A DNA stretch of 35,908 nt from Deltaproteobacteria bacterium. GTDB lineage: Bacteria; Desulfobacterota; Deferrimicrobia; Deferrimicrobiales; Deferrimicrobiaceae. The notes beneath the pieces were generated by a model. That model was not told the origin of the DNA, did not search any database, and was given only the letters and a program-made list of their open reading frames with translations. This document shows positions 12,672-35,908 of this stretch, piece after piece (position 1 is the stretch's first letter; each line of letters starts with the position of its first letter). A program made the translations under genes and the position numbers. The stretch covers positions 23,394 through 59,301 of the forward strand of contig JBBISC010000001.1 of NCBI GenBank assembly GCA_037441465.1, written 5' to 3'.

Positions 12672-13586
12672 ATGGCGACCGACAAGGTGGATCCCGGATG
12701 TTCGACTGCTGCGGGCGAGTCACCCCGTGCCTACCGTCACGGACTCGCCCGTCCGTTCTCCTACAAGATCGGCTATTCCCTCGGGAAGTGGCTTCCGAGA
12801 GGGGCTCTGTTCCTCCTCGCGGACCTCCTTGCCGACGCAACGCACCGGACGAATGCGGAACCGGCCAGAAATCTCCGGGCGAACCTGCGATCGGCCTTCC
12901 CACGATGGTCCGAGCGCGAAGTCGAAGAACTCTCGAAGAGGATTTTCCGGAACTTCGCCCGCAACCTGGTGGATTACGGACGATTCCATACGATCACCGA
13001 CGAGGCGCTGGACCGCCTGATACCCTCCGTTCAGCACCTCCACTTGCTCGAAGAGTCCTTCGCGAAGGGGAGGGGAGTCATCCTCGTGACCGGGCACATC
13101 GGGAACTGGGAACTGGGCGCCCTGTTCTTCGGTCGGCACGGCTTCAAGATCAACGTCGTCACGATTCCCGAAGGGAGCGAGCGGATCGATTCGATCCGCG
13201 GGGCGTATCGTACGCGCCAGAACATCCGCACGATTGTCGTCGACGGGTCGCCGTTTTCCTCTCTCGAGATCGTGGCGGCGCTCCGCCGGGGAGAGATCGT
13301 CGCCATGCTCGTGGATCGGTGGGAGAGGACCGACGGGATCCCGGCGAAATTCTTCGGCGAGGATCGTCGTTTCCCCCGCGGCCCGTTCGTGCTGAGCCGG
13401 GCGACGGACGCCCCAATCATCCCCGCGTTCATCGTCCGGGATGGGAACATATACCGGGGCGTGGTCGATCCCCCTGTTTCCATGGATGAGCCGGAGGATG
13501 AACCCGGGGTCCGACGGGTGAGCGAGTCTCTCGAACGGGTGATCCGGACGTACCCGGACCAATGGTATAATTTCGCACCTCGATGA
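12672..13586 (+). CDS. LpxL/HtrB-like lysophospholipid acyltransferase family protein
   Basis: GRGVILVTGHIGNWE, VAMLVDR, FFG...FPRGP..L, YPDQWYNF. Confidence 0.88.
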   Translation: MATDKVDPGCSTAAGESPRAYRHGLARPFSYKIGYSLGKWLPRGALFLLADLLADATHRTNAEPARNLRANLRSAFPRWSEREVEELSKRIFRNFARNLVDYGRFHTITDEALDRLIPSVQHLHLLEESFAKGRGVILVTGHIGNWELGALFFGRHGFKINVVTIPEGSERIDSIRGAYRTRQNIRTIVVDGSPFSSLEIVAALRRGEIVAMLVDRWERTDGIPAKFFGEDRRFPRGPFVLSRATDAPIIPAFIVRDGNIYRGVVDPPVSMDEPEDEPGVRRVSESLERVIRTYPDQWYNFAPR

Positions 13587-13692
13587 GGAGCATGGAGTCG
13601 GGCAAGGAGACGAACGGATGATGCCGTTGAATCGATCCGCACTATGCAATGCGGCTGGCGCGGAGGGGATGGGGAGGTACGCGCCCGGCGGG

Positions 13693-15195
13693 ATGAAGGT
13701 TCTACCCGTGCGGACGACCCTCCCGAAGGAAACGATTTCCCTGTGCCCGGAATGTCTCCGCACGATCTCCGCCGAAATTTTCGAAGAAAGCGGCAGGGTG
13801 ATGATGCGGAAAAGTTGCTCCGATCACGGCACGTTCACCGACGTCATCTTCTCGGATGTGGAGATGTACCGCCGCATGGGCCAATGGTATTTCGGGGATG
13901 GAGGGGGGTTCGAGAACCCCGCCGGCGGGATGGGAAAGGAGTGCCCGAGCCGGTGCGGTATCTGCGGCGCGCATTCGACGCATACCTCTCTCGCCAACAT
14001 CGACCTCACCGCGCGCTGCAATCTATCCTGTGCGGTCTGCTTTGCGGATGCCAACCGGAACCCGTACGAGCCTTCGTTCGAACAAGTGGTGGAGATGCTC
14101 CGCCGTCTTCGCGCCCAGCGCCCGGCGCCGGCGTTCGCCGTCCAGTTCACGGGAGGCGAGCCCACGCTGCACCCGCGATTTCTCGAAATCGTGGCCGAAG
14201 CGCGGGAAATGGGGTTTTCCCACCTCCAGGCGGCCACCAACGGCATCCGGTTCGCAGATCCGGAGTTCGCGCGAAGAGCGCGGGATGCCGGGCTCCATTA
14301 CCTGTACCTGCAGATGGACGGGACGACCGACGACGTCTTCCTGAAGATCCGCGGGAAGGCGTTGCTGGACACCAAGCTTCGGGTGATCGATTCCGCTAGG
14401 ACGGCCGGGCTGCGCATCATCTTCGTCCCCACCATCATCAAGGGCGTGAACGACCACCAGATCGGGGACCTCTGCCGCCTGGCCTTCGACCACCTCGACG
14501 TGCTGTCGGGGATTTCATTTCAGCCGATGACGTTCACCGGGAGGTACCCCGAATCGGACCGCGAGAAGCTTCGATTCACCCTTTCGGACCTTTCCCGTGA
14601 GTTCAGCCGCCAGACGGGACTCACCCACCCCCTGGAGGATTGGTTCCCCCTGAACGCCGCGGTTCCCCTGGTCCGATACGCGGGGGCCGTAACGGGGAAC
14701 GTGGCGGTGAACCACGCGTGCCATCCCCATTGCGGGTTGATGACCCTGTTTTTCATCGGCCGGAACGGCGAGGCCGTCCCGATCACGAGGTTCCTCGATC
14801 TCCGGGGACTTCTCGGAGAGGTGGAACGGCTGACGGGGAGCGCGAGGACGAGCCGCGTCAAGAGCTTGTCGAAGATCCGCGCCCTCCAGACTTTTTACCG
14901 GTTTTTCCGGGAGGACCGGGCTCCGGAGGGGTTGACGTTCCTCCGCTTTCTCAAGACCCTCGAGGGGTTCGCCGAAAAGAAGTACAGCTGGGACGGAAAG
15001 TACGAAGGGCACACATATAAATCCTTCTATGTCCTCGGGATGCATTTCATGGATGCCTACAATTACGATCTCGAGCGCGTGTCGCGCTGCGGCGTCCATT
15101 ATTCGGCCCCCGACGGAAGAATCTACCCGTTTTGCACCTACAACTCGGGTCCGATGCACCGTCATCGGGTAGAGAACGCGCTTGCGTCTTCTTGA
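13693..15195 (+). CDS. Radical SAM enzyme, tetraether synthase (Tes/GDGT-MAS, MJ0619) family homolog
   Basis: SLCPEC...KSCSDHG (rubredoxin-like), CPSRCGICGAH, LANIDLTARCNLSCAVCFA (radical SAM motif), QFTGGEPT, YLQMDG, VPTIIKGVND, FQPMTFTGR, HPHCG, MHFMDAYNYD..R..RCGVHY..PDG.IYPFCTYN. Start is uncertain (13618, 13669 or 13693). Confidence 0.85.
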   Translation: MKVLPVRTTLPKETISLCPECLRTISAEIFEESGRVMMRKSCSDHGTFTDVIFSDVEMYRRMGQWYFGDGGGFENPAGGMGKECPSRCGICGAHSTHTSLANIDLTARCNLSCAVCFADANRNPYEPSFEQVVEMLRRLRAQRPAPAFAVQFTGGEPTLHPRFLEIVAEAREMGFSHLQAATNGIRFADPEFARRARDAGLHYLYLQMDGTTDDVFLKIRGKALLDTKLRVIDSARTAGLRIIFVPTIIKGVNDHQIGDLCRLAFDHLDVLSGISFQPMTFTGRYPESDREKLRFTLSDLSREFSRQTGLTHPLEDWFPLNAAVPLVRYAGAVTGNVAVNHACHPHCGLMTLFFIGRNGEAVPITRFLDLRGLLGEVERLTGSARTSRVKSLSKIRALQTFYRFFREDRAPEGLTFLRFLKTLEGFAEKKYSWDGKYEGHTYKSFYVLGMHFMDAYNYDLERVSRCGVHYSAPDGRIYPFCTYNSGPMHRHRVENALASS

Positions 15196-15955
15196 TGTCG
15201 CGCGATCCGCATGGGTCTCCAATGGGACCCTCCGGTGGATCGTTTCCGCATTGATCCTTGCGCTGTCCCTTGCTCCCCGGCCGAACCTCGCGGAGGAAAC
15301 CGTCCCGGACGGAAAGACGATTTCGGGAGCGGAGAGGAACCGCTGGTTCGAGGTGGCCCGCGAGCGCCAGAAGGGGGTCACCGGATTGAGTGCGACGGTG
15401 GTGCAGCGGAAACGGGATCCGCTCCTGAAGAACGAGGCGGTCTCCAGGGGGAAGTTGTCGTTCCGGAAGCCGGACTCGCTTCGATGGGAGGTGGAGAGTC
15501 CCGAAAGAATGGTCGTGGTAATGGATGGCCGGACGGTAACCACGTATTATCCGACGAAAAAGGAGGCCGAGCGAAGGGACATGCAGGACGATTTCGCGTC
15601 CCGCGCCGCGCTGGGTTTTATCGAATCCGGAATCTCCGCCTCCCTCCCCGAACTGGAACGGCGATTCCACGTCGACCTTTTCCGGTCGGACGACCAGGTG
15701 GTCCTGCGGTTGATCCCGCGCTCGAAGATGCTGTCCCGCGTCATCGCATCGATCCGGATCCTCCAGGACCCGTTGGAGGGGCGACCGCGTCGAATCGTGG
15801 TCGAGGGCGCCCGCGGGGATCGGACCGAGACGACGTTTTCCGGGGTGACCCTCAATCCCGATTTTCCTCCGGGCACCTTTACGTTGCGACTGGGACCCGA
15901 GGTCCGGGTCACGGAAACGGGGGGACCGGGACGGAACCGGATAGATTCGCCATGA
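15182..15955 (+). CDS. LolA-like outer-membrane lipoprotein/lipid carrier
   Basis: Signal-like hydrophobic N-terminus; SATVVQRKRDPLL, SRGKLSFRKPDSLRWEVESPE, VMDG.TV..Y, ETTFS...LNP....F. Start is uncertain. Confidence 0.8.
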   Translation: MRLLDVARSAWVSNGTLRWIVSALILALSLAPRPNLAEETVPDGKTISGAERNRWFEVARERQKGVTGLSATVVQRKRDPLLKNEAVSRGKLSFRKPDSLRWEVESPERMVVVMDGRTVTTYYPTKKEAERRDMQDDFASRAALGFIESGISASLPELERRFHVDLFRSDDQVVLRLIPRSKMLSRVIASIRILQDPLEGRPRRIVVEGARGDRTETTFSGVTLNPDFPPGTFTLRLGPEVRVTETGGPGRNRIDSP

Positions 15956-16041
15956 CGAGGTTCCTCCCGCTGCCCGTGACCGAAACCTCGCGGGCGATCC
16001 CGATGGCTTGAAGGATCGATGGACCGCGGCGTCCCCGGGGA

Positions 16042-17217
16042 ATGACCATGCCGAGCGCAATGCCTGCCGTCCTGCTTCTCGACGGCCTGTGGAACAAGAC
16101 GGTGGCGGCGGTCCGCTCCCTCGGGAAGCGCGGTTACCGTGTCTCGGTGGGGGAGAGGACCCGGTTCGCACCGGCCCTTTTTTCGAGATACTGCTCGCGT
16201 CGCTTCCTTCACCCGTCGCCGGCAACCTCTCCGGAAGCCTTTCTCGATGCGCTCGAAAAGGAGTTGCGCGTCGGCGCATACGACGTGGTCCTCGCGATGG
16301 AATTCGGTACCCAGGTCCTGATCGCCCGGAACCGTCCTCGCCTCGAGGGGATGGCGTGTTTCCCCTTCGCGTCCGCGGACCTCGCGATCCGGGTCCAGGA
16401 CAAGGGAGAGCTCTCTTCCTTCGCATCGGCCCACGGCGTCGAGTGTCCCGCCACGTTCCGTCCGGAAGGGACGGAGGACGTTCACGCGATGGCGGAGCGG
16501 GTCCCATACCCCCTCCTCATCAAGCCAAGGTTTTCCTCCGGAGGGCGGGGGATCGTGCGGGTGGAAACTCCTTCTCAACTTCGGAAAGAGTATCCGAACG
16601 TCCATGCCGTCCATCCGTCACCGATTCTTCAGGAGCGCCTTCCCCCGGGAGGGGCCGCGTTGGGGGTGGGCGTGCTGATGAACTATTCTTCCGAACCGCG
16701 CGCAACGTTCGCATACCGGCGCCTGCGGGAATACCCCGTCGGCGGGGGTCCCAGCACGTTTCGGGAGAGCGTGCGGGACGAAACGCTCTGCCGGACGACG
16801 GAGCGGCTCCTCTCGGCGCTCGGCTGGACCGGCGTCGCGATGGCGGAATTCAAGGTCGATCCGAGGGACGGCAGGCCGAAGCTTCTCGAGGTGAATCCCC
16901 GGTTCTGGGGATCGCTGAACCATGCGATCCTGTCGGGCGTCGATTTCCCGCACCTGTTGTGCCGGATGGCGATCGACGGGGATGTTCCTCCCCTGCGGGA
17001 GTACCGGGTAGGCGTTCGGAGTCGATCCCTGCTCCATGGGGACCTGATGCATTTCGTGAGAAACCCGAGACGGTTCCACCTCCACCCTCGCTTCTTCGAT
17101 TTTTCGATCCCGGATGATCTGCTGTCGGCGTCGGATCCATGGCCCGTGGTGGGGCGGGTGGCGACGCTGATCCCCGCGTGCTACGACCGGGAGTTGCGGA
17201 AAACGATGCTCGGATAG
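16042..17217 (+). CDS. ATP-grasp (carboxylate-amine ligase-like) protein
   Basis: QDKGEL, YPLLIKPRFSSGGRG, LQERLP, AMAEFKVDPRDGRPKLLEVNPRFWGS. Confidence 0.88.
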   Translation: MTMPSAMPAVLLLDGLWNKTVAAVRSLGKRGYRVSVGERTRFAPALFSRYCSRRFLHPSPATSPEAFLDALEKELRVGAYDVVLAMEFGTQVLIARNRPRLEGMACFPFASADLAIRVQDKGELSSFASAHGVECPATFRPEGTEDVHAMAERVPYPLLIKPRFSSGGRGIVRVETPSQLRKEYPNVHAVHPSPILQERLPPGGAALGVGVLMNYSSEPRATFAYRRLREYPVGGGPSTFRESVRDETLCRTTERLLSALGWTGVAMAEFKVDPRDGRPKLLEVNPRFWGSLNHAILSGVDFPHLLCRMAIDGDVPPLREYRVGVRSRSLLHGDLMHFVRNPRRFHLHPRFFDFSIPDDLLSASDPWPVVGRVATLIPACYDRELRKTMLG

Positions 17218-17254
17218 GGAAACACGGGAAAAAGGTAACGGAGATGGGCGAAGA

Positions 17255-18088
17255 ATGACGACCTGCCGGAACGTGCTGACCGTTGACCTGGAAGACTGGT
17301 ATCACATCTGCGGTACGGGCCGGTCCGGGGACGTCTCTACGTGGGACGCGTACGAAAGCCGCGTGACCCGCAACACGGCGAAGGTCCTTTCCCTTCTACG
17401 GGAACACCAGGCCCGTGCCACGTTTTTCGTCCTCGGGTACATCGCCGAACGCGAACCGGGGTTGATCGCCGACATTTCGAAGCAGGGCCACGAGATCGCC
17501 ACCCACGGCCATCACCACCGAAGGGTGTTCGAGATGTCCGAGGAGGAGTTCGCGGAGGATGTCGATCGCTCCATGGACGCGATATCGTCCGCCGGCGGCG
17601 GCCGGGTGATCGGGTACCGCGCGCCGGAGTGGTCCATTCGTCCCCACACGATGTGGGCGCTCCGGGTCCTGCGGCGGAAGGGGATCCGGTACGACTCCAG
17701 CATGGTCCCCCTGACGCGGATGGGAGACCGCTCCTTCCCGACAAGGCCCTGCCGGATCCCGGCGGGGGACGGGGAGATCCTCGAGTTCCCCTTGACCACC
17801 GTCCGCTGCTTCGGGGAACATCTGCCCTTCACGGGCGGGTTGCCGTTGCGCCTCATGCCGTATTTCTACGTTCTTTCGAGGATCCGACGGATGAATGCGG
17901 AGGGGGACGCGGCGATGGTTTACGTCCACCCATGGGAATTCGACGCGGGGCAGCCGAGGATCGATCTTCCGTGGAGCCGGAGGATCATGCATTATTTCAA
18001 CCTGCGATCGACCCCGGGGAAGATTTCCGGACTGCTCGGCAACCTGCGATTCGCGCCCCTCCGCGAAGTGCTCGGGGTCGGGCAGTAA
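17255..18088 (+). CDS. Polysaccharide deacetylase (CE4) with DUF3473-like C-terminus
   Basis: LTVDLEDWYH, ATFFVLG, GHEIATHGHHH, GYRAPEWS, YDSS, YVHPWEFD. Confidence 0.9.
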   Translation: MTTCRNVLTVDLEDWYHICGTGRSGDVSTWDAYESRVTRNTAKVLSLLREHQARATFFVLGYIAEREPGLIADISKQGHEIATHGHHHRRVFEMSEEEFAEDVDRSMDAISSAGGGRVIGYRAPEWSIRPHTMWALRVLRRKGIRYDSSMVPLTRMGDRSFPTRPCRIPAGDGEILEFPLTTVRCFGEHLPFTGGLPLRLMPYFYVLSRIRRMNAEGDAAMVYVHPWEFDAGQPRIDLPWSRRIMHYFNLRSTPGKISGLLGNLRFAPLREVLGVGQ

Positions 18089-18089
18089 C

Positions 18090-18356: not shown

Positions 18357-19463
18357 TTGATGTCCCCGATGCCCGAACCGCTGCGCGGGATCCGTCCGGG
18401 GATGGCGGGGAGGCGGATGCTGCCGGAACTGCTCTCCTTCGTGGTCCGGGAGGGGGTGCTGGAGAGATTTCGCGCCTTGTCCGTGTTCGGCTTCGATGAA
18501 CTTTGCAGGGCGCTCCACCGGGATCCCGGGTACGATATTTCCCGAGGCAACCGGCGGAGGATGCTCCGCCTCCTGATCGACCTTCTCGTGGAATGCGGTT
18601 GGCTGGAGCCGGCCCGATCCGGCGACCGGTGGTCCTGTCGACGGGACGGGACACCCGGACCGGGGGAGTATCGGGCGGACACCGGGGAGGGCGACGGCCA
18701 GGTCAAATTCTTTCGCCGTTGTCTGCGTTTCGTCCCCGGTTACCTGCGGGGAGAGGAATCGCCGATCGACTTCGATTCCGAGAACGTGCGCGTGTGGGAG
18801 GACTTCCTCGGATGCGACGAATTCCAGGCGTGCCGATCCATCCTGCTCGACCGGATGGCTTCGACCGCCGGCGCTTCCCCTTCCCTTCTGGACCTGTGCC
18901 ACGGCCCCGGATGGGGAATAGAGCGGGCGATGGAGCGCTGGCCGGAGGCCCGGATCACCGCGATCGATTTCACGGGCGCTTTCACGGGGAGTGCGAAGTG
19001 CCGGGCGGAGCAGGCGCGCGTGCGGAACGTCGCCCGTTGCCGGCCGTCCTCTCCCGTCGAATGGTTCGGCCCTTCCGACTGGAAAGGATTCGGCCACCCG
19101 CTGCCGTTTCCCGAGGGCGCCTTCGAATCCGTTCTTTTCGGTTGCGGGGACCCGTACATCCGGCCCGACGCGCGGGACGCGGTCTATGCCGATTTGCGCC
19201 GCGTCCTCGCGCCGGGGGGTACGCTGGGCATCCTGACCCGCGGGTACCCCGATCCGGAACACCGCCACGTCCCCTCGTACTGGCCCCGGATCACCACGCT
19301 CATCCATGATTTCACCGAGAGCGTGTGCGCGGGATGGCAAGGATTCCCGAACGTCGGAGAAAATCAGGACATGTTCCCGCGCCTCGGGTTCCGGGGCGCG
19401 TGGGACCCGGGGGGCGCCATGAGCATCCTGGACTCCGCGCTTTGGATCCTGAAAAAGGGGTGA
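18357..19463 (+). CDS. Class I SAM-dependent methyltransferase-like protein
   Basis: LLDLCHGPG (variant motif I), ITAIDFT, LPFPEGAFESV, LRRVLAPGGTL. The helical N-terminus resembles PKS C-methyltransferase domains. Confidence 0.75.
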   Translation: MMSPMPEPLRGIRPGMAGRRMLPELLSFVVREGVLERFRALSVFGFDELCRALHRDPGYDISRGNRRRMLRLLIDLLVECGWLEPARSGDRWSCRRDGTPGPGEYRADTGEGDGQVKFFRRCLRFVPGYLRGEESPIDFDSENVRVWEDFLGCDEFQACRSILLDRMASTAGASPSLLDLCHGPGWGIERAMERWPEARITAIDFTGAFTGSAKCRAEQARVRNVARCRPSSPVEWFGPSDWKGFGHPLPFPEGAFESVLFGCGDPYIRPDARDAVYADLRRVLAPGGTLGILTRGYPDPEHRHVPSYWPRITTLIHDFTESVCAGWQGFPNVGENQDMFPRLGFRGAWDPGGAMSILDSALWILKKG

Positions 19464-19470
19464 GGCCCCG

Positions 19471-19493
19471 AACCCCGGAAGGGGTTATTTTTT
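19471..19493 (+). terminator. Intrinsic terminator of the + strand operon
   Basis: AACCCC-GGAA-GGGGTT followed by ATTTTTT, 7 nt after the stop at 19463. Overlaps the stop of the convergent lipoprotein gene. Confidence 0.65.
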
Positions 19494-20060
19494 CAGGAAC
19501 GCTTTCCGGAACTCGGGGTCCCCGACCATCGCCATGAAAGCGTCATCCACCAACCGGTAGCTTCGCTTTTCCAGTTCCGCGAGATCCGCCGTCCCGGCCG
19601 GAGGCGCCACCACCGTGTATTCCTTCTGGAACGTCGATTCCCCGGGCTTGATCAGGGTCACGCTGAAGACGAATTTCTGATCGGTGACCGAGTTCAGGAC
19701 GATCTGGAGTTCCGGCGACGTTTCGGTTCCGGCGGTCCACGGCGTAACGAGGGTTCTCACGCCGATCCGGTTGAACGACCTGACGAAGCAGTCCCAGAAA
19801 TACGTCTGGAGGGCCGGGGACGCTTCATAGGCGTACTGGGAGTCTACGCTGTAGTAATCCCAGATGCTCGTGTCGGCGGCGTTGTTCGTCACGGAAGAGA
19901 AGTAGAGGGGTTTCCCCTTGTACGCGGACAAGTTCGCGGTTGCGAACGAGGGATTGTAGCTGGTCTGCTTGATGAAAACTTTCGTCCCCCCCCTGGGGCA
20001 ACCGGTCAATGCCAGGAAACAGGCGAACAGCAGGGCAGCCTTGCAGACGATTCTTCCCAT
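19485..20060 (-). CDS. Lipoprotein of unknown function (191 aa)
   Basis: Strong SD GGAGGAGGAGG; MGRIVCKAALLFACFLALTG-C lipobox; globular-looking mature sequence. Confidence 0.8.
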   Translation of the reverse strand: MGRIVCKAALLFACFLALTGCPRGGTKVFIKQTSYNPSFATANLSAYKGKPLYFSSVTNNAADTSIWDYYSVDSQYAYEASPALQTYFWDCFVRSFNRIGVRTLVTPWTAGTETSPELQIVLNSVTDQKFVFSVTLIKPGESTFQKEYTVVAPPAGTADLAELEKRSYRLVDDAFMAMVGDPEFRKAFLKK

Positions 20061-20130: not shown

Positions 20131-20139
20131 ACTATACCA
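20131..20139 (-). promoter_or_regulatory. Putative extended -10 promoter for the lipoprotein gene
   Basis: TGG-TATAGT overlaps the darB stop codon, about 70 nt upstream of ATG 20060. Confidence 0.4.
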
Positions 20140-25345: not shown

Positions 25346-25605
25346 GTCCGATGGTTCTGGATGAAATCGGCCAGCGTCCGAAGGGATCGGAGCACCTTGC
25401 GGCTGGTCTCCTGGGAGCCGATCCGGACGTGGTATTTCCGCTGGACGGCCACGACGATCTCGACCGCATCGAGGGAGTCGAAGCCGAAGGGAGACTCGGG
25501 CCCGATCAGGGGGGCATCCGGCGGCGGATCGGCGGGCGGCGATTCCGTGCACCGGCAGGTTTCGACGATCATCTCGAACAGCTCGCGTTCAAGTGCGGAT
25601 AGCAA
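25342..25605 (-). CDS. Acyl carrier protein (second copy)
   Basis: TTG start after a GGAGGAG SD; FGFDSLDAVEIVV phosphopantetheine Ser motif. Confidence 0.85.
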   Translation of the reverse strand: MLSALERELFEMIVETCRCTESPPADPPPDAPLIGPESPFGFDSLDAVEIVVAVQRKYHVRIGSQETSRKVLRSLRTLADFIQNHRT

Positions 25606-27816: not shown

Positions 27817-28825
27817 TCCGACCGCTCCGCATCCGTGCATCGAGCTCCCGGAAGAGCCCGTGTTCCGCGTCGGCGCATTCGCGTACGATCCGGGCCAGTG
27901 CGGGGAAATCTTCGTTCCCCTGGGGGCGTCCCTTGCAGAGGCGCGCTCCGGCGACCGCGAAATCCCGCCAATGGTCGCCGATGGCCGTCATCCGCAGCGA
28001 AAAATCGAGGAGGGTGCGATCGTCCAGGAGCTCCGCGGCTTCCTGGAGGAACGCCGCGTAAATGAAGCGGAATCCTCCTCCCCCGGTGCCGACTTCCTCC
28101 TGCATCCGGATGACGTTGCCCAGGTAAAGGAGCGTTCTCCGGTCCCCCAGGCGGGACGGCCACGATTCCACCTGGCCGGCCAGATACCGCATCCCCCGGA
28201 CGCCGATCAACGGGATCGGAATCCGCGTCATCAGGCGGCACACCTCCCGGATGGCCTCCCGGATCGCCGGAACCGGATCGACCGTCTTCGGGACGTTCGT
28301 CAGGAAGAACAGTTTTCCGTTCGGCGCCAACGGCCCCCTTGCGAAACGGGCCCGCTTCAGGTCGGCGGCGGCGCAGAGGATCGGTTCCTCGATCACCGGA
28401 TCGCTGATCCGGTAGGAGTCGCCCTCTTTGCCATAGACGACCAGGTTATGGGCGTTGAAGTGGAATCGCAGCGCGGGGGGGAAGTAGGGGAGCCAGTAGA
28501 CGCCGGTCTGTGCCCCGACGGGAACGCCTTCGGCCAGGAGCCGATCGAGCTCCGCCATCCCGTTCGCCGCGTCCCGGAAGGTGCGGATCGTCACCCGGAC
28601 GCCGAGACGCTTCGCCACCCGCCGGATGATCCGGCCCGGAGCGCACCGGAAGGTGGTCAGTGGCAGATGGTTGATCCGTACGAAGGGGAAATATGCGAAA
28701 AAAAGACCGCTGCCGATGCCGAACGCCATGGCCTCGGAGAGAGGAAGGCCGTGGTGGGTCAGCAGATTGGCGGCGACGCCGCTCTCGCAATGCGCCGACT
28801 GCCGATGTGGGAAGGAGGGGATCAG
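27800..28825 (-). CDS. BtrH N-terminal domain / DUF4872-like papain-fold protein with a non-canonical start
   Basis: In-frame FPHRQSAHCESGVAANLL...LSEAMAFGIGSG lies upstream of the first ATG (28729). Also FHFNAHNLVVYG, ISDP, MQEEVGTGGGGFRFIYAAFL. Probable CTG start at 28825. Confidence 0.82.
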   Translation of the reverse strand: MIPSFPHRQSAHCESGVAANLLTHHGLPLSEAMAFGIGSGLFFAYFPFVRINHLPLTTFRCAPGRIIRRVAKRLGVRVTIRTFRDAANGMAELDRLLAEGVPVGAQTGVYWLPYFPPALRFHFNAHNLVVYGKEGDSYRISDPVIEEPILCAAADLKRARFARGPLAPNGKLFFLTNVPKTVDPVPAIREAIREVCRLMTRIPIPLIGVRGMRYLAGQVESWPSRLGDRRTLLYLGNVIRMQEEVGTGGGGFRFIYAAFLQEAAELLDDRTLLDFSLRMTAIGDHWRDFAVAGARLCKGRPQGNEDFPALARIVRECADAEHGLFRELDARMRSGRNAVRR

Positions 28826-28844: not shown

Positions 28845-29267
28845 CTATTTCCAGGCGCCGGCGGGAGGATCGCATTCCGGGATGCCCATGAGTTCCTCCT
28901 GCGTGATCCGGAAGATAGCGGCGTATCGATCCGCGAGGGCGGGAGAGATGCGCCGGAATGCCGCCGGTTTCATATGCCTCCGGACCTGCCATTGGAAAAG
29001 ACCGGCGTAGCCGGCCAGCAATCCGGGGTCCATCTGGTGACGGACCATGTGGTACGCGAGCGGGCTCAGTGCTCCGCCGCGGATCTTTGCGAGGACCGTG
29101 CCGACCTCCGCCTCGATGGACTCCCAGGCCATGTGGTTCGCGATGTTGGCGGGCTCCCATCCGGCGCTTTGGACCAGTATATACCTCCCGTCGTCGTCGA
29201 CGGCGTAGCTGACTTCCTTCCATTCCCCGAAAAGGCCCTGGTCCTGGGGGACGTCCTTTCTCCGCAT
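28845..29267 (-). CDS. Conserved hypothetical protein of dar/flexirubin-type clusters
   Basis: MRRKDVPQD...YAVDDDGRY..V.S.GWEP..IAN..AW...SPLAYHM...MD..LLA...G...WQVRRHMKP. I recall this family next to BtrH-like genes. Confidence 0.75.
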   Translation of the reverse strand: MRRKDVPQDQGLFGEWKEVSYAVDDDGRYILVQSAGWEPANIANHMAWESIEAEVGTVLAKIRGGALSPLAYHMVRHQMDPGLLAGYAGLFQWQVRRHMKPAAFRRISPALADRYAAIFRITQEELMGIPECDPPAGAWK

Positions 29268-29289
29268 CAGCAATACCGCCCCATCCGCG

Positions 29290-30135
29290 CTAGTCGTCGC
29301 GCTCGATCATCCTGGAAGATTGAAGAGGAATCCAGGCGATCGCGAAGCCGGCGGAAACGTAGTAGTGACGGCGTACCAGAGGACTGTCCTCGAACACGGC
29401 GCCGCACAGCGTGTCGTAACGGGCATAGGCCCCGAACCACGCCTTCTCGAATCGGCGCGACAGCGCGACAAGGAACTGCAGGCCCCCATAGCCGCCGTGC
29501 GCATCGAACGCCGGGCGATCAGGGCGAGCGTCGCTTTCCGACACGCCGTAGAAATATTGATGCTGACGGCGCGTCGCGAAGATCGGCCCGGCCAGCATGC
29601 CGAGTTGCCACGGCCGGCCGCCGAACCCGGCGACATCGAAATTCAGGGTGGGCGAGAGACTCACGCCGGCGTCTCGCGGGTGCGACTCGACGGTGAACGC
29701 CGCCCGGACCGGCGTGCGCACGTCGAGCTTGAAGCGACGACCGTCGCCGCGCCAAAGGTGGATGTCCAGCGACGGGCCGAATTCAACCATCGGCTTGAGA
29801 TCGGTCATTCCTTCGCGCGCGCGATTGTTCTTGCTGCGCACCGGCGGCGTTGCGCTCATGCTGAGATTGACCTCGGCCTCTTTCCGGTCCAACAGGATCG
29901 AGCGAATGCCGGTCCGGTCGGCCTTGAGCCACTCCAGGCGGTAAATAATGTAGGGAACGGGCAGAAGGTAGATGCGGACCTCGTCCGAGCCGCGGTAGTC
30001 GGGCAACAGCAAGCCTACAATGCCTGCGCCAAGCTCCCATTGCGGCGCCGTCTCGGCGGCGGCTTGTTGCGACAACCCAAGGGAGAGCGCCGCGCAAAGG
30101 ATCATGCCGGCGATTCGAGACTGTGTCTTGATCAT
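29290..30135 (-). CDS. MipA/OmpV family outer-membrane beta-barrel protein
   Basis: Signal peptide; WELGAG, PDYRGSD, PVPYIIYR, AREGMTDL, YFYGV, FEDSPLV. Confidence 0.85.
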   Translation of the reverse strand: MIKTQSRIAGMILCAALSLGLSQQAAAETAPQWELGAGIVGLLLPDYRGSDEVRIYLLPVPYIIYRLEWLKADRTGIRSILLDRKEAEVNLSMSATPPVRSKNNRAREGMTDLKPMVEFGPSLDIHLWRGDGRRFKLDVRTPVRAAFTVESHPRDAGVSLSPTLNFDVAGFGGRPWQLGMLAGPIFATRRQHQYFYGVSESDARPDRPAFDAHGGYGGLQFLVALSRRFEKAWFGAYARYDTLCGAVFEDSPLVRRHYYVSAGFAIAWIPLQSSRMIERDD

Positions 30136-30167
30136 TTCGGATCCACCCTGCTGACTCCCGCAGCCGT

Positions 30168-31304
30168 TCATTCCTCCTTGGCGCATTCGCCGGTCGTACC
30201 CGAAAGTTTCCCGAGCGTCGTCAATCCGTACGCCTCGTCTCCGGCGAGCGTGAGGCAGGAAATCCGGTCGCCGCCGACCGGATCGCCGCCGGCAGGAACC
30301 GTTGCGGGGAAGTCGCGGAAATCGGCGCCCGGGGAAGGGAATACGCGTCCCCCCTTGAGCATGAGCGCGGCCGCCGCCGCGTCGAAGGCCGGTCCTGCCG
30401 GCATGGAGCCGTACAAGGGGGTGTAGCAGGCTACGCGGGCGTTTTGCGCCACAGCGGCATAGCGTCGCCCCGATTCGCGACAGCCGTCCGCCCCCAGCAC
30501 CAGCAGGCCCGGTTCAGGGAGGGGAATGCCGGAAATCGGCGGGCATCCCGTGGTCGATGCGTCCAGCGCGCAATACCCGCAGCGGGCCGCGCTCTCCCGG
30601 GCGAGGAGCAGGAATGCGGCCCCCTCCCCGGGGATCGACGTCTCCATCTCCGTCCGCAACGGGGTCATGGGAACGGCCGGCCCCGCGTCCCGCGTGCGGT
30701 ACCGGACGTAGCCGATCAGTTCGGACAGTTCGTCGACCGCTCCGAAGAGGACCCGTTGGGCCTTTCCTTCCGCAAGCCAAAGGCGGGCGGTGGCGAGTGC
30801 GGATGGAACCGACAGGTGAAAGTGGGTGACGGTGAGGTTTGGGCCCATGGCGCCCAGCTGAATGGAGATGTGGGCGGCCGCGGAGTTGTGCACCGAGTTG
30901 GCGAAATAGGTCGGCGATGCGCAGATGTCGCCGTCGTTGATGAACGATTTGAGGAACGCGTAGGTGATTCCCGTCGGCCCGTAGCCGCTGGCGATGATGA
31001 TGCCCAGCCGGGATCTTTCCGCCTCGGGCAGTTCTGCGTCCGCCAGCGCAAGGTGGCTGCCGAGGAGGGCCAGCCGCGAGAAACGGTCGATCCTCCGCAA
31101 TGTGCGAACGGGGATGAACTCCACGAGGCGGGAATCGTCGGCCTGGAAGGCGGGGATCCGGACTGTTCCGGATCCCGTCGACAAGTCGAAGGTCCCGGGG
31201 GAAAAGGCGGCTTCGGTCAACGCCCGTGACAGATCGGAGATGCCGCAGCCGAATCCGCCGACCACTCCGATCCCCTCGATGACGATCCGTTCCGTTCCGT
31301 TCAT
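30168..31304 (-). CDS. Beta-ketoacyl synthase chain-length-factor-like subunit (non-catalytic)
   Basis: LRRIDRFSRLAL, SPTYFANSVHNSAA, GPNLT, FGAVDE, GEGAAFLLL. No TACSS cysteine. Confidence 0.82.
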   Translation of the reverse strand: MNGTERIVIEGIGVVGGFGCGISDLSRALTEAAFSPGTFDLSTGSGTVRIPAFQADDSRLVEFIPVRTLRRIDRFSRLALLGSHLALADAELPEAERSRLGIIIASGYGPTGITYAFLKSFINDGDICASPTYFANSVHNSAAAHISIQLGAMGPNLTVTHFHLSVPSALATARLWLAEGKAQRVLFGAVDELSELIGYVRYRTRDAGPAVPMTPLRTEMETSIPGEGAAFLLLARESAARCGYCALDASTTGCPPISGIPLPEPGLLVLGADGCRESGRRYAAVAQNARVACYTPLYGSMPAGPAFDAAAAALMLKGGRVFPSPGADFRDFPATVPAGGDPVGGDRISCLTLAGDEAYGLTTLGKLSGTTGECAKEE

Positions 31305-32473
31305 GCCTTGCCGAGGACGACGACCGAGTTGTTCCCCCCGAATGCGAGCGATTCGGAAAGGGCGACGGTTCCCTCGACGGTGGTGACTTCCCTGACGGGG
31401 GTGACCCCGATCTCGGGGTCGGGCGTCTCGAACCCGGCGTTGGCCGGGATTTTCCCGATCTCAAGGCAGGCGGCGGTGAACACCGCCTCGATCGCCCCCG
31501 CGGCCCCGAGGGTATGCCCGGTGTACCCTTTTGTGGAGAGGAAAGGGACGCCGGGCAGGATGTCGTGGAGGACACGGCCCTCGACCCGGTCGTTGTCGGG
31601 CGTTCCGGTCCCGTGGGCGTTGACGAACGCAACGGATGCGGAGGAAACGCCGCCGGTCGCCAAAGCTTCCGTGATCGCGCTCCGCAGCCCCGCGCCGTCG
31701 GGTCGTGGGGCGGTCAGGTGGTAAGCGTCGCTGGCGGATCCGTAGCCGAGCAGGAAGGAGCGCGCCCGTATCCCGCTCCGCCGGAGGACCCGCTCCGAGG
31801 CAAGGACGAGCATAGCCGCCCCTTCCCCGAGGTTCAATCCCTTGCGGTGTCGATCGAACGGCTTGCACGGGGAATCGTCGGTGATCATGAGGGAGATGAA
31901 ACCGATGTAGGTGATCCTTCCCAGTTCGTCGGCGCCGCCCGCGATCGCCGCATCGCAGAGGCCTGCCCGGATCCAGGATCCGGCGATTCCCACCGCATCG
32001 GTGCCGGACGAGCAGGCGGTCACCACGGTCTGGCGGGGGCCCGAGAGGTCGAATTCCCGGGCGATGACATCCGCCGGGTTGCTGCGGAGGATCCGATGGA
32101 TGGGCGCCATGTCCGGAACTCCGCCGGCCAGGTATCCGCGGCAGAACGTCTCCTCGCTCATGACGGCGCCGACGGTCGTCCCCACGCAGACTCCCACCCG
32201 CAGCGAGCCAAGGGTTTTCCGGTCGAGCCCGGCGTCGGCGACCGCTTCCCGGGCCGCGTGCAGTGCGAAGGCGCTCGTCCGGAGGAGATCCGGGGGTTCC
32301 TCGAAGCCGACCGCCTCGAACACCGGGTGGGGTATCGGGTGGTCGCTGGCGAAGCGCATCGGGGGTGCCGGGTGACGTTCGCCGCGAAGGAGCGCTTCCA
32401 TGGAATCGGACAGATTTCCGCCGGCGGCGCAGATGCAGCCCATGCCCGTGATGGCGATCGGGGCGCCGCTCAT
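31301..32473 (-). CDS. Beta-ketoacyl-ACP synthase (FabF/FabB-like)
   Basis: VTACSSG, GLNLGEGAA, DAYHLTAP, NAHGTGT, KGYTGHTLGAAG, AFGGNN. Confidence 0.93.
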   Translation of the reverse strand: MSGAPIAITGMGCICAAGGNLSDSMEALLRGERHPAPPMRFASDHPIPHPVFEAVGFEEPPDLLRTSAFALHAAREAVADAGLDRKTLGSLRVGVCVGTTVGAVMSEETFCRGYLAGGVPDMAPIHRILRSNPADVIAREFDLSGPRQTVVTACSSGTDAVGIAGSWIRAGLCDAAIAGGADELGRITYIGFISLMITDDSPCKPFDRHRKGLNLGEGAAMLVLASERVLRRSGIRARSFLLGYGSASDAYHLTAPRPDGAGLRSAITEALATGGVSSASVAFVNAHGTGTPDNDRVEGRVLHDILPGVPFLSTKGYTGHTLGAAGAIEAVFTAACLEIGKIPANAGFETPDPEIGVTPVREVTTVEGTVALSESLAFGGNNSVVVLGKA

Positions 32474-32727
32474 CCGGTTTTCAGCCGTCCTTCTATGTAG
32501 GAGGCAAGGGCATGGACCGACTGGAAAGCCGCTTTCCCCTCGTCCAGGTTCTGGATCTCGATGCCGAAGCGCTTCTGCATGATGACGATGAGTTCCACCG
32601 CGTCCAGCGAATCGAGGCCGAGACCTTCCCCGAACAGAGGTGCGTTTTCATAGATATCCGCGGGGGTCAACTCCTCGAGGTTCAAATCCTCCACGAGGAT
32701 CATTTTCAGCTTCTCCACGGTGGTCAT
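32470..32727 (-). CDS. Acyl carrier protein
   Basis: PLFGEGLGLDSLDAVEL; ATGA overlaps on both sides. Confidence 0.92.
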   Translation of the reverse strand: MTTVEKLKMILVEDLNLEELTPADIYENAPLFGEGLGLDSLDAVELIVIMQKRFGIEIQNLDEGKAAFQSVHALASYIEGRLKTG

Positions 32728-33665
32728 CCCGTCGGCTCCTGATTCCACATGTCGAAGAAATTGAAGAACTGGTAAGGGCGCTCTTCGACGAATCCCTCCA
32801 ACGCCCGGATGAATGCCTCGGCATAGGGGCGGTATGCCTCCGGGGCCCTCCCCAGATCTTCCGGGACCCGAATGACCTTCTCTACCAGCAGGGAGTAATT
32901 TCCCGGTCCGGATTTATATGGGAAAATCACGACCACGGGAGCGCCGGTGGCGGAGGCCAGTCGGTAGGGTGAAATGGGAACCCGTACCCGGGCCCCGAGG
33001 AATTCGACCCCGACCGTGCTCCTGTCGCTCCCCATTGCCCGGTCTCCCATGATACAGAGGACCTCGCCATGTTTCAACACTTGAAGCATCTCCAGCGCCC
33101 CCCCGAGGGGACCGGCAGGATCGATGATCCGGAACGCCGCTTCATCGCCGCTGTGCTCGAAAATGTGAAGGTCGACGTCGCCTTCCTCCCGGTGGAGCAG
33201 CAGGCTCACGGGGGTTTCCAGCATACGGAGACTCTCCATCGCGAATTGCCAGCATCCCGCATGGGCGGTCACGAGAATCAACCCGCGTCCTTCCCGGACC
33301 CGTTCGAGCAGTTCTTCCCGCTTGCCGTAGCGGACGGTCAACTGCCCCGGGCCGAGAATCCCCAGGGCGGCGCGATCCACAAGGATCCGCCCGATTTCGA
33401 CGGTGATCCGGAAGCAGTCCCAAAGGCGGAGGAGGCCGTTTCTCCCCGGGAAACGCCGGGAGAGGTACGGGAGGGAGCGGGCCCGGACGGATGGCCGGAA
33501 CAGTACGTAGTACAGAGCGACGAAAACCACCATGACGTAAGCGGCGCGTCGGCCGGCGAGCCGAATGAGCGCGTAAAAGAAGCGGTGCTGCCACCGGGAG
33601 CCGATGCTCCGCGCGCTCCAGGACTTCCTGTCCTTCCGCGCATCCGTTCCGTCCGACGGCCGCAT
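32724..33665 (-). CDS. LpxL-like acyltransferase (aryl-polyene/flexirubin-cluster type)
   Basis: WSARSIG, GRGLILVTAHAGCWQ, CIMGDR, FLG, PYRLA, PYQFFNFFDMW. Confidence 0.87.
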   Translation of the reverse strand: MRPSDGTDARKDRKSWSARSIGSRWQHRFFYALIRLAGRRAAYVMVVFVALYYVLFRPSVRARSLPYLSRRFPGRNGLLRLWDCFRITVEIGRILVDRAALGILGPGQLTVRYGKREELLERVREGRGLILVTAHAGCWQFAMESLRMLETPVSLLLHREEGDVDLHIFEHSGDEAAFRIIDPAGPLGGALEMLQVLKHGEVLCIMGDRAMGSDRSTVGVEFLGARVRVPISPYRLASATGAPVVVIFPYKSGPGNYSLLVEKVIRVPEDLGRAPEAYRPYAEAFIRALEGFVEERPYQFFNFFDMWNQEPTG

Positions 33666-33670
33666 CGCGT

Positions 33671-35125
33671 TCAGCAGGATTCGTCCATGAGGCGGCGGTT
33701 CGTGCGGGTGAACTTGAGGAAATCGCCCATGTTCCGCGCGAAACGAATCCAGCTGTCGGGCGATCGCCACAGCATGGCGGCATACCCCATCAATACCCTC
33801 GGTCTCTTGAAGTGGGATCGGTAGAAGTCCCGGTACAGTTCCTCGAGCCGCGCGACGGTCATTCCCTTCGTGACGAACTGGAAGTGCATGCAGTCCATCT
33901 TTTCCCAGTCTTCGTCGAAATCGCCCAGTTCGTGAATCGTTTCGTAGATCGGCGAGCCCGGGAAGGGGGTGAACTTGGTCAGGTTGAAGTCATCGATCGG
34001 GAGCGAAAAGACGTAGTCCATGCTTCGCCGGATGCTTTCCTCCGTCTCGCCGGGAAGTCCCATCATCAGAAGTCCCTTGGTCCGCATCCCCGCCTTCTTG
34101 ATCATCCCGATCTTCCGGGCGATGTGGTTCAGGTCCGCGTGCTGCCGGTGCTCCGCCAGCAGTCGTTCGTCGCCCGTCTCGATTCCGAGACTGACCATCC
34201 AGCAACCGGCCGCCTTCATGCGGCGCAGCAGCTCCGGGTCGACGTGCTCCGCACGTACGGCGCAGTTGAAGGTCATCCCGAGGGGACGATCGATCATCAT
34301 CCCCGTGAACGCATCGACCCGCTTCCGGTGGAAGGTGAACTGGTCATCGTAGAAGTTGACGTGCCGGGTGCCGAACCGTTCCTTCAGGTAATGCAGGTGT
34401 TCGTAGAGATATTCGGCGGAGTTGTACCGGAAACTCCGACGGAAGACCGAGCGGTCGCAATAGCTGCAGGAATAGGGACAGCCCCGGCTGGAGATGCAGC
34501 TCGTGTTCGGCACTCGCGGATAGTTGAAGATGGGAAGCTTGTACGAGTCCGGGAACCCGTCGAGCTTCTCGTACGCCGGGAAGGGGAGGGTGTCCAGTTC
34601 GATCGCCCGGTCCCGGAAGCCGGTGAACCGGGCGGTCCCCTCCGTGCCCTCCCGGAAGATGATTCCCGGGATTGCCGACGGATTCTCGCCCCCCGACTCG
34701 ATCAGTTCCCCCATCGTCTCTTCCCCTTCTCCGACCACGGCGAAGTCCATCGCGGGAAAGCGTGGAAAGAGCGCCTCCTTCAGTGCGGAAACGTGGGGAC
34801 CTCCGAACACGGTCCGGATGCCGGGCAAGGTCTCCCGGGCCGCTTCGGCGATCCGGATTCCGTCGAGAAAGCTCGATGTGGTGCAACTGACGCCGAGGAA
34901 GGCCGGGCGCTTCGCAAGGAGGTGGTCCCGGATCGTGCGGTCGGAGCCGGGGCGGGCGTAGCAGTCGACGATGGTGGACCGGATGTCCCGTTGTTCGAGG
35001 CAGGCCGCGATGCTGGCCAGCCCGATGGGCGGCATGATGTTGGCGATCCGGGAGATATCGCCGGAAGCGGCGTCCGCGCGATAGCCGAGAGGATGGACCA
35101 GCAGGACCCTGTCGGGATTCAGCAT
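33671..35125 (-). CDS. B12-binding domain radical SAM protein
   Basis: VLLVHP, MPPIGLASIAA, VFGGPHVS, GEGE, SSRGCPYSCSYC, FYDDQF, LGIETG, GLPGET, TPFPGS. Confidence 0.92.
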   Translation of the reverse strand: MLNPDRVLLVHPLGYRADAASGDISRIANIMPPIGLASIAACLEQRDIRSTIVDCYARPGSDRTIRDHLLAKRPAFLGVSCTTSSFLDGIRIAEAARETLPGIRTVFGGPHVSALKEALFPRFPAMDFAVVGEGEETMGELIESGGENPSAIPGIIFREGTEGTARFTGFRDRAIELDTLPFPAYEKLDGFPDSYKLPIFNYPRVPNTSCISSRGCPYSCSYCDRSVFRRSFRYNSAEYLYEHLHYLKERFGTRHVNFYDDQFTFHRKRVDAFTGMMIDRPLGMTFNCAVRAEHVDPELLRRMKAAGCWMVSLGIETGDERLLAEHRQHADLNHIARKIGMIKKAGMRTKGLLMMGLPGETEESIRRSMDYVFSLPIDDFNLTKFTPFPGSPIYETIHELGDFDEDWEKMDCMHFQFVTKGMTVARLEELYRDFYRSHFKRPRVLMGYAAMLWRSPDSWIRFARNMGDFLKFTRTNRRLMDESC

Positions 35126-35908
35126 CCCGGATCCCCGGGAAACCGGACCAGGTGGTCCCAGAGGAGCCCGCGATATCCAAAGGAGTGCATGACCGCGAGC
35201 CGCTTCTGGCCTTCGAACGGCGGGAAGATCCGGTCCCGCCGGCCGCGGAATGCGTCGGTGATCATCCCGTTCATTACGCCCGCGTCGATTTTGGGCGAAA
35301 AGTAGTATACCGGCTCGAGCAGGGACGCCGCGGGGGAGAGGACCCCCTCGGCGATCGCCTGCCGATGAAGGACGGTGCCCGGCAGGATGCGGATTCCGGA
35401 GTAGGCGAATGCCACGGTGTGTTCCAGTCGTTGCAGGTTTGCGAGCCCTTCCGTCACGGTCTCGATGGTTTCCCCCGGACCGCCGAACATGACGAAGTGG
35501 GCGCAGGGAAGGCGCTCGGCGATGAAGGCCCGGTTCACTTCGAGAACATCCGCGAAGGAGAATCCCTTCCCCAGCGAACGGAGGGTCGCATCGCACGCCG
35601 CATCGGTGCCGAGTTCCACCGCATACAGCCCCGCCCGCTTGAGGAGGGCGATCTCCTTTCGTCCGATCCGCTCGGGGCGCATGTAACAGCACCACCGGAC
35701 CCGGAGCTCCCGCCGGAGGATCTCTTCCGCGATCGACAGATAATGGCCCTGCGGGTCGTTGAAGATCGAGTCGGTGAAAAAGAAGCTGTCCGCGCCGTGC
35801 TCGGCCCCCGCCCTCTCGATGCCGTCCACTACCTCCTTGGGATCGCGAAGGCGGAAGCGGTTCCCCTCGAGGAAGGGGTAGACGCAGTAGATGCAGCCGT
35901 GGGGGCAG
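35119..35908 (-). CDS. Radical SAM protein, probably of the 'lipid biosynthesis B12-binding/radical SAM' type; 5' part is outside the window
   Basis: The window edge reads CPHGCIYC.YPFLEG; then FFTDSIFN, ELGTDA, HFVMFGGPGET, GIRILPGT, LEPVYYFSP, GYRGLLWD. The B12 domain itself is not visible. Confidence 0.85.
   Translation of the reverse strand, partial: CPHGCIYCVYPFLEGNRFRLRDPKEVVDGIERAGAEHGADSFFFTDSIFNDPQGHYLSIAEEILRRELRVRWCCYMRPERIGRKEIALLKRAGLYAVELGTDAACDATLRSLGKGFSFADVLEVNRAFIAERLPCAHFVMFGGPGETIETVTEGLANLQRLEHTVAFAYSGIRILPGTVLHRQAIAEGVLSPAASLLEPVYYFSPKIDAGVMNGMITDAFRGRRDRIFPPFEGQKRLAVMHSFGYRGLLWDHLVRFPGDPGC

Follow-up and report, generated by a model that had tools for sequence, protein, structure and literature searches.

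We describe a gene island in the genome of a Deferrimicrobiaceae bacterium (G000; 2.30 Mb in 176 contigs, 94.5% complete), in which an operon with a homologue of tetraether synthase (Tes), one of the radical S-adenosylmethionine (SAM) enzymes, converges on a block of genes of the type II fatty acid synthase and polyketide synthase (FAS/PKS) kind. The stretch of DNA that was analyzed, which we call the window, is 35,908 nucleotides long (G000:C1:23394-59301). The island starts at window position 12531 and continues for about 12.35 kb on the contig past the window end, for a length of 35,729 bp. The contig past the window was read as L002, and a window coordinate equals the L002 coordinate plus 33606. 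Because G+C is near 65%, reading frames were chosen by codon-position G+C; families were named with Pfam and NCBIfam, and gene starts are those of the open frames, several of them uncertain. The island was inserted or deleted as one unit, and its product is probably, as argued below, a lipid whose chain ends would be joined by Tes.

The block on the plus strand is the Tes operon. Its first gene (12666..13586, with an ATG at 12672) encodes an LpxL-like acyltransferase (PF03279, 131.4 bits), for which NCBIfam ranks the PIM acyltransferase and LpxL families highest, none of them reaching its cut-off, and the PDB gives only distant and generic matches (LpxM 5KN7, PatA 5OCE). The second gene (13618..15195) encodes the Tes homologue. 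It scores 506 bits against the equivalog model NF045702, with a cut-off of 450, and the next-best family, TrsS, stays at 329.2 bits, below its cut-off of 490. Compared to the archaeal enzyme of PDB 7TOL, a glycerol dialkyl glycerol tetraether (GDGT)/macrocyclic archaeol synthase, homology is full-length (E-value 1.5e-115, residues 29-520). The alignment keeps the radical SAM motif CX3CX2C (CNLSCAVC), the two N-terminal Cys pairs of the zinc ribbon (PF23545, 63.7 bits), a CxxxCxxC stretch, an HxHC motif, and two C-terminal Cys residues. These marks show that the predicted protein is a bona fide Tes-family enzyme. We found no PcrB/GGGP-synthase gene in the host genome at its 94.5% completeness, and so the archaeal Tes substrate is probably not made in this host. 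It is likely that Tes here acts on a substrate other than archaeol-type isoprenoid chains.

Four more genes complete the plus block. A LolA-like lipid carrier (15182..15955; PF03548, 60.4 bits) reaches 68.8 bits with the LolA model and 60.5 bits with the flexirubin LolA2 model, both below cut-off. Next comes an ATP-grasp ligase (16042..17217; PF15632, 37.7 bits; PF02655, 27.5 bits) with distant generic matches only in the PDB, a gene that is kept beside Tes in relatives. The polysaccharide deacetylase with a DUF3473 domain (17255..18088; PF01522, 78 bits; PF11959, 120 bits) falls just short of the TIGR03006 cut-off (265.6 vs. 276.2 bits). The last gene (18357..19463) is a SAM methyltransferase that matches PDB 8HD2 over nearly its full length (E-value 1.9e-65, 224.5 bits, residues 23-346). 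The structure 8HD2 is that of AmxMT1, the odd methyltransferase of the anammox type II fatty acid synthesis (FASII) cluster, which binds the acyl carrier protein (ACP) of that cluster (PMC9821293). Unlike archaeal Tes, the window Tes is found in a bacterium, and its operon partners include genes of the LpxL-like, LolA-like, ATP-grasp, and deacetylase families.

The two blocks meet at a terminator-like hairpin with a T run (19471..19493; stem 19471-19486, then ATTTTTT), as an earlier interpretation made from the letters alone (the sequence-only reading) had proposed. A second hairpin lies on the opposite strand at 19476-19462, and the region 19300-19700 holds 3 terminator-like sites where shuffled sequences lead us to expect 0.4.

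On the minus strand, in order of increasing coordinate, the first gene encodes a predicted lipoprotein (19485..20060) with a signal peptide that ends in LALTGC; no Pfam family scores above cut-off for it, and its copies in the related loci L004 and L010 are 83-88% identical. The next gene (20132..21280) had been called a ketosynthase of the KAS III type, and it turns out to be a head-to-head condensing ketosynthase of the StlD/DarB family (NF005293, 553.4 bits vs. a cut-off of 450), although the DarB-specific exception model stays below cut-off (455.1 vs. 550). It is accompanied by DarG and DarH genes. A B12-binding radical SAM enzyme (21294..22589; PF02310, 66.4 bits; PF04055, 52.6 bits) has HpnR as its top NCBIfam match, far below cut-off (165.6 vs. 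650). Then come a GT2 glycosyltransferase fused to DUF2062 (22614..23789; PF00535, 58.8 bits; PF09835, 47.1 bits) and a deacetylase-methyltransferase fusion (23816..25552; PF01522, 92.1 bits; PF13489, 58.3 bits), for which the PDB matches are chitin and peptidoglycan deacetylases. The start of the fusion gene is uncertain because its open frame overlaps the gene for the second ACP. This ACP had also been proposed, and it is there at ~25342..25600 (the start is approximate), with a DSL motif and 22.9-23.4 bits for the PP-binding family against a cut-off of 20.8.

The minus block continues with an ABC-2 permease (25647-26987; PF12698, 104.2 bits) and its ATPase (27001-27840; PF00005, 110.1 bits), a pair that reaches 260.5 bits with the DrrA-type model, below cut-off. 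The BtrH-related acyltransferase DarH (27800..28729) passes NF053550 with 415.2 bits (cut-off 300) and carries the Pfam domains BtrH_N (134.8 bits) and DUF4872 (183.5 bits). The DarG-family protein (28845..29273) passes NF053536 with 140.8 bits (cut-off 70); the flexirubin-specific DarG model gives 133.2 bits, below its cut-off of 170. A MipA-family outer-membrane protein (29290..30186; PF06629, 134.2 bits) is followed by a pair formed by a chain length factor (CLF)-like protein (30168-31304), which has the N-terminal ketoacyl-synt domain only (60.3 bits), and a ketosynthase (KS; 31301-32473) with both ketoacyl-synt domains (120.3 and 86.2 bits). The first ACP (32470..32748; PF00550, 35 bits) also passes NF006617 (71.5 bits, cut-off 70); for the ACPs, the PDB gives generic ACPs only, with 9LS6 as the best match. 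A second LpxL-like acyltransferase (32724..33770; PF03279, 48.1 bits) and a second B12-binding radical SAM enzyme (33671..35110; PF04055, 85 bits; PF02310, 70.6 bits) precede the end of the window. The top NCBIfam matches of the latter, ApyD (168.9 bits) and HpnJ (156.8 bits), are far below cut-off. The gene content that the sequence-only reading had listed is thus present, each gene at or near the place given for it, and its family calls hold with the exception of KAS III.

The window end cuts a gene of the family TIGR04072, "lipid biosynthesis B12-binding/radical SAM protein", with its C-terminal part at 35119..35908 on the minus strand. A run of 10 N (L002 2303-2312) directly after the window end splits this gene into two frames that score 407.9 bits (model positions 189-443) and 218.7 bits (model positions 1-187), for a cut-off of 360. 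We considered a true frameshift and rejected it, as the break falls at the 10-N run and only about one model position is missing. The run itself, together with the intact copies (642-661 bits) carried by 7 congeners, leads us to read the break as an assembly gap.

Past the TIGR04072 gene, the island continues with a weak B12-like protein, a second CLF/KS pair, a 4HBT thioesterase, sub-threshold ApeI/ApeP-like dehydratase frames, a PlsC-type acyltransferase, a third ACP, a KS, a phytoene-desaturase-like flavoprotein (L002 9616-11160; PF01593, 67.1 bits), another KS, a FabG/FlxB-like reductase, and last a divergent fifth B12-type radical SAM gene. A second run of exactly 10 N (L002 6009-6018), some 3.7 kb further than the first, lies at the start of the second KS and adjoins the poorly resolved dehydratase and thioesterase frames. 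In total, the island holds 4 KS, 2 CLF-like genes, 3 ACPs, and, if the weak B12-like frame is counted, 6 radical SAM enzymes.

Do the two blocks belong together? The clearest evidence comes from congeners without Tes. In G002 (6 contigs, 97% complete), 96 bp of a single contig separate the left flank of the island (window 9301-12530) from the right flank (L002 14653-16001), and in G005 (100% complete) the distance between the flanks is 54 bp. In the Tes-positive congener G018, the same left flank leads into Tes. Since the flanks adjoin in G002 and G005, the ~35.7 kb that include both blocks are a single insertion or deletion, and the island has been gained or lost as a whole. Its G+C (0.646) is close to that of the genome (0.656). 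As for marks of a mobile element, neither the window nor L002 has a tRNA, and the island ends show no direct or inverted repeat of at least 11 bases. Just outside the right border, as set by G002, there is an ICMT/PEMT-family membrane methyltransferase gene (L002 14678-15244), for which the empty site of G005 gave no DNA match.

The distribution of the genes agrees with this. In a table of presence and absence for 61 genomes, including 28 of the window's genus (its own included), Tes is over cut-off in 15, all of them in the genus (15 of 28). TIGR04072 is over cut-off in 14 genomes, 10 of the 15 Tes-positive congeners, none of the 13 Tes-negative ones, and 4 elsewhere; DarB is found in 7 of the 61, all Tes-positive (7 of 15) and none among the 13 Tes-negative congeners. 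This joint distribution, which is one within a genus and among kin and not a statistical test, is suggestive. Two weaker Tes-like matches lie outside the genus, both below cut-off: G035:C197:1129-2646 (330.9 bits, within an open frame of 961 aa), from a different genus of the same family, and G059:C1:762769-763755 (259.3 bits, limited to model positions 2-323), from a different family of the same phylum.

Gene order provides a third line of evidence. Four genomes (G008, G026, G027, and G024) have the gene order of the window on one contig. Two genomes of the NC10 group, which is a different phylum, G061 and G063 (loci read as L018 + L083 and L021 + L084), have the same gene set including Tes in a different order, with all genes on one strand: B12-radical SAM, LpxL-like, Tes, LolA, SPASM-type radical SAM, B12-radical SAM, ATP-grasp, hydrolase, B12-radical SAM, a TPR protein, and the DUF3473 deacetylase, and then KS, CLF, the AmxMT1-like methyltransferase, KS, TIGR04072, a ketoreductase (KR), ACP, a CrtD-like gene, and GT2. 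The NC10 AmxMT1-like methyltransferase is 50% identical to that of the window, and TIGR04072 reaches 397.8 bits in G061. The SPASM-type radical SAM and alpha/beta hydrolase genes (L018 12214-13350 and 15747-16937) are both absent from the window's island. The clean empty site, the joint distribution, and the one-strand NC10 gene set indicate that the blocks belong together, and the linkage of the Tes operon with the FAS/PKS island is well supported. The sequence-only reading had taken them for one unit, which these three results support; it had named independent distribution of the blocks in relatives as what would speak against it, and that is not what we observe.

We now turn to Tes itself. 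Among the best 80 of 281 relatives, from a scan of one genome per species, 22 loci have a Tes at least 59% identical to that of the window, and the remaining 58 have at most 54% identity. The 22 are labelled Deferrimicrobium/Deferrimicrobiaceae, "Deltaproteobacteria", NC10/Methylomirabilales, and Dissulfurispiraceae; two of the labels look like binning errors. Neighbors were called with tblastn at E-values of 1e-8 or less and coverage above 0.5, a threshold that diverged neighbors could escape. An LpxL-like gene is directly upstream of Tes in 21 of the 21 related loci that have upstream DNA, and LolA is downstream in 19 of the 20 that have at least 900 nt downstream (L015 is without it). B12-radical SAM and/or KS matches occur in 12 of the 13 with at least 7 kb downstream, L005 being the exception. 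For the 58 loci of lower identity, mostly from Acidobacteriota, the same tblastn search gives no LpxL-like, ATP-grasp, deacetylase, or KS neighbors; there are weak LolA-like matches in L068 and L075 (25-28% identity) and weak B12-radical SAM matches in L042. Two of these 58 loci have as neighbors LepA, enoyl-CoA hydratase, NusB, GH42 galactosidase, and GFO oxidoreductase. The acidobacterial Tes genes stand alone.

A quick maximum-likelihood tree was built from 80 rows, and in it a branch with SH-aLRT 100 sets the 22 rows with this context (21 loci and the window's gene; L024 was left out, with a coverage of 0.79) apart from the others. The group was defined by its neighbors before the clade was checked, so that the tree shows clustering and is not an independent test. 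The window Tes thus belongs to a separate bacterial Tes clade, always found with an LpxL-like acyltransferase gene and nearly always with LolA-like, ATP-grasp, DUF3473 deacetylase, B12-radical SAM, and KS genes.

The island itself comes in two forms among close relatives. The loci L004, L009, and L010 resemble the window. In the short form (L006, L008, and L016), the DUF3473 deacetylase is followed by the deacetylase-methyltransferase fusion, MipA, CLF, and KS. In L016 the AmxMT1-like methyltransferase is also present and the contig ends within the KS, too early to show ACP1, LpxL-like 2, or TIGR04072. In L006 and L008 the short form continues to the second B12-radical SAM enzyme and the B12-like gene, and both are without DarB, the first B12-radical SAM enzyme, GT2, the ABC transporter, DarH, DarG, ACP1, LpxL-like 2, and TIGR04072. 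The Dar module is therefore an add-on, and it appears more likely that Tes acts on the product of the constant KS/CLF/B12-radical SAM core than on a dialkylresorcinol as such.

How does this compare with known systems? The anammox and Desulfotalea clusters are described in PMC2649909 as having SAM-radical/B12 enzymes, phytoene-desaturase-like genes, numerous FabF paralogues, and a deacetylase-like gene, together with an unusual methyltransferase; by the same paper, and by a 2026 review (PMC13459092), the product of such FASII clusters is itself unproven. Our island has in common with the extended FASII of anammox bacteria and Desulfotalea psychrophila (the Kuste3335-3352 type, or "ladderane candidate") TIGR04072, the AmxMT1-like methyltransferase, the polysaccharide-deacetylase-like gene, and the phytoene-desaturase-like gene, as well as multiple FabF paralogues and ACPs. 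It goes beyond that type in its Tes operon, LolA, MipA, LpxL-like genes, and Dar module. A ladderane product is unsupported, and we do not claim it.

The other likeness is to the aryl-polyene/dialkylresorcinol clusters. The arcuflavin cluster of Azoarcus and the flexirubin clusters have, as described in PMC3949708, LolA, acyltransferases, a glycosyltransferase, MipA, a deacetylase beside a methyltransferase, a BtrH-like gene, an ABC transporter, DarB, and DarA. Common to these clusters (flexirubin; arcuflavin of Azoarcus sp. BH72) and to our island are DarB, the BtrH-like gene (here DarH), the ABC transporter, LolA, acyltransferases, a glycosyltransferase, MipA, the deacetylase with methyltransferase, KS/CLF, and KR. 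Unlike them, the island has six radical SAM enzymes, and its Dar module is optional among close relatives.

For the coupling of tails, there is also a known bacterial enzyme. Mss is a radical SAM enzyme that joins two lipid tails in bacteria with membrane-spanning lipids (Thermotoga, Thermoanaerobacter), and a Tes query finds no homologue in Mss-carrying genomes, both according to the available text of PMC13159169, in which no cluster like this island is described. The coupling by Mss is the reaction that the window Tes may perform; we set the two enzymes apart by description and not by sequence. Homologues of Tes are present in hundreds of bacterial genomes and have been proposed for the synthesis of branched GDGTs (brGDGTs), with their activity never confirmed, according to PMC8941075 and PMC11868695. 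A search of one literature library, with supplementary tables outside its reach, gave no paper with both tetraether synthase and LolA, or with tetraether, aryl polyene, and radical SAM, nor any description of such a Tes operon, and a further search gave no mention of "Deferrimicrobi-" among the papers listed.

From these comparisons, the island is shown by its predicted gene families to consist of an anammox/Desulfotalea-type extended FASII, an optional dialkylresorcinol module (DarB, DarG, DarH, and the ABC transporter), and the Tes operon. The FASII-type parts are AmxMT1-like, TIGR04072, the phytoene-desaturase-like flavoprotein, FabF paralogues, KR, the thioesterase, and the three ACPs. Given its DarB/DarG/DarH and AmxMT1-like genes, the island is a mosaic of known but uncharacterized cluster types, with Tes added to them. 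Its parts are of kinds already known, and what is new is that they are combined with Tes; the novelty that had been suggested for the whole combination therefore narrows to Tes, as the rest is made of two kinds of cluster that have been described.

In our judgment the island probably encodes a dedicated pathway, in which Tes would couple the chain ends of a lipid that the island itself makes, and we hold this with moderate confidence. The gene families suggest the following route. The dedicated KS/CLF pairs and ACPs would build special long chains, which the AmxMT1-like and B12-radical SAM enzymes could methylate (branch) or cyclize and the flavoprotein could desaturate. Where DarB is present, it may join two chains by head-to-head condensation, giving a dialkyl-cyclohexanedione or a resorcinol. 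The LpxL-like, PlsC-like, and DarH acyltransferases, with GT2, the deacetylases, and the ATP-grasp ligase, would attach a sugar, amino, or glycerol head. The Tes homologue, presumably cytoplasmic, would then form a radical C-C bond between unactivated chain ends, giving a macrocyclic or two-headed lipid, which the ABC transporter, the LolA-like carrier, the lipoprotein, and MipA may bring to the outer membrane. The product and the coupling of its tails are what we infer from families, and the sugar head, the cross-linking into a bola lipid, and the export are proposals of the same standing. Metatranscriptome contigs from 4 runs of 2 studies, mostly 88-95% alike, cover pieces of both blocks. 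They are a weak hint that both blocks are expressed, as these are contigs and not reads, library DNA is possible, contigs cannot show transcription, and the parts without cover are uninformative.

Several observations weigh against this dedicated pathway. TIGR04072 is absent in 5 of the 15 Tes-positive congeners and DarB in 8 of the 15, and the short island form exists, so that neither gene is required with Tes. Four genomes of other families, outside the genus, have TIGR04072 without Tes. The table of congeners overstates independence because its members are kin. No island frame took the DarA name in the NCBIfam scans, in which no search with a DarA profile was made. The ApeI-like and ApeP-like dehydratase marks of the aryl-polyene type are below cut-off (18.1 bits vs. 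28.5 and 16.2 bits vs. 27, in frames beside a 10-N gap), and only the FabG/FlxB-like reductase passes, by the FabG model. In L005 (10500-16377), the Tes operon stops after the DUF3473 deacetylase and unrelated DNA follows. That locus passes through a short stretch also present on contigs C73 and C19 of G000 into DNA 93.5% identical to contig C23, and its junction may reflect either a repeat-borne rearrangement or chimerism of the contig. Finally, a core DUF2229 (PlsA/Ger-like) gene leaves bulk-membrane ether lipids possible as the Tes substrate.

This last point leads to the main rival, which we consider unlikely. The island would be anaerobic machinery for bulk membrane-spanning lipids, brGDGT-like or diabolic-acid-like, with Tes joining the ends of ordinary acyl or alkyl chains of the membrane, the B12-radical SAM enzymes adding extra methyls or rings, and the acyltransferase and LolA as accessories. 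The proposal made for bacterial Tes homologues (PMC8941075, PMC11868695) agrees with it, Tes with several B12-radical SAM enzymes would fit the radical steps needed for brGDGT-like lipids, and near-identical DNA occurs in metagenomes of peat (one study) and of soil and freshwater sediment (one study), where we left out the best holder as a possible source and excluded the runs with small shares. The DUF2229 gene, on the other hand, occurs in 25 of 27 congeners irrespective of their Tes status, so that Tes follows the island and not this gene. Tes travels instead with dedicated KS/CLF/ACP and LolA, MipA, and LpxL-like genes, which points to a special envelope lipid; the acidobacterial Tes genes stand alone; and the known bacterial producers of membrane-spanning lipids use Mss, with Tes undetected there, according to PMC13159169. 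The DUF2229 gene itself (G000:C55:5571-6230) lies in a 1496-aa open frame; its open frame is ~1040-1060 aa in most congeners vs. ~1400 aa in other families of the phylum.

A bolder idea, still harder to credit, is that the LpxL/LolA-linked Tes clade and its B12-radical SAM enzymes are the missing anaerobic bacterial route to membrane-spanning lipids with end-to-end coupling and methyl branches or rings, which would be brGDGT-like or form a new class of two-headed lipids of the envelope. If it were true, then Deferrimicrobia, NC10, and some Nitrospirota of peat, soil, sediment, and the subsurface would be unrecognized sources of biomarkers.

Quite improbable, in our view, is an aryl-polyene/dialkylresorcinol-type cluster for a protective pigment or a signal lipid, in which the Tes homologue acts within one chain (by cross-link, cyclization, or methylation) and couples no tails. 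The long list of genes held in common with the arcuflavin and flexirubin clusters (DarB, DarG, DarH, LolA, LpxL-like, GT2-DUF2062, MipA, the deacetylase with methyltransferase, ABC, and KS/CLF) is what such a cluster would have, and so are the FlxB-like KR (303.3 bits vs. a cut-off of 340) and the weak ApeI/ApeP-like matches. But the Pfam and NCBIfam scans gave no enzyme for an aryl starter (ammonia lyase, CoA ligase, or chorismatase) among the island frames that they covered, the Dar module is missing in the 8 DarB-negative of the 15 Tes-positive congeners and in the NC10 clusters, and Tes is over the equivalog cut-off with all the aligned Cys motifs of the coupling enzyme kept. That the blocks are neighbors by chance and belong to separate pathways, as their convergence with a terminator between them and the L005 locus could suggest, is very improbable and already largely refuted by the single clean indel, the joint distribution, the co-directional NC10 arrangement, and the AmxMT1-like gene, a mark of FASII-type clusters, inside the plus block.

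To return to the dedicated pathway, the function of bacterial Tes homologues is the question that lies behind the widely used brGDGT climate proxies. One bacterial Tes clade can now be seen as a constant component of a mobile lipid pathway, whose named partners are conserved in loci that carry the labels of three bacterial phyla. A vague homology to Tes becomes a defined gene set with a defined comparison, that of congeners with the island and congeners without it, which makes function directly testable. And the anammox-type FASII genes (TIGR04072, AmxMT1) are tied to a C-C coupling enzyme of known mechanism, which may help to decode those clusters.

The left flank of the island (window 1-12644) holds genes unrelated to it: a DUF255 thioredoxin-like gene, a nucleotidyl transferase, a TPR-SLT transglycosylase, a GH3 hydrolase, a weak PIN-domain frame, and a peptide ABC importer of the Opp/Dpp type, the solute-binding gene of which ends at the island border.

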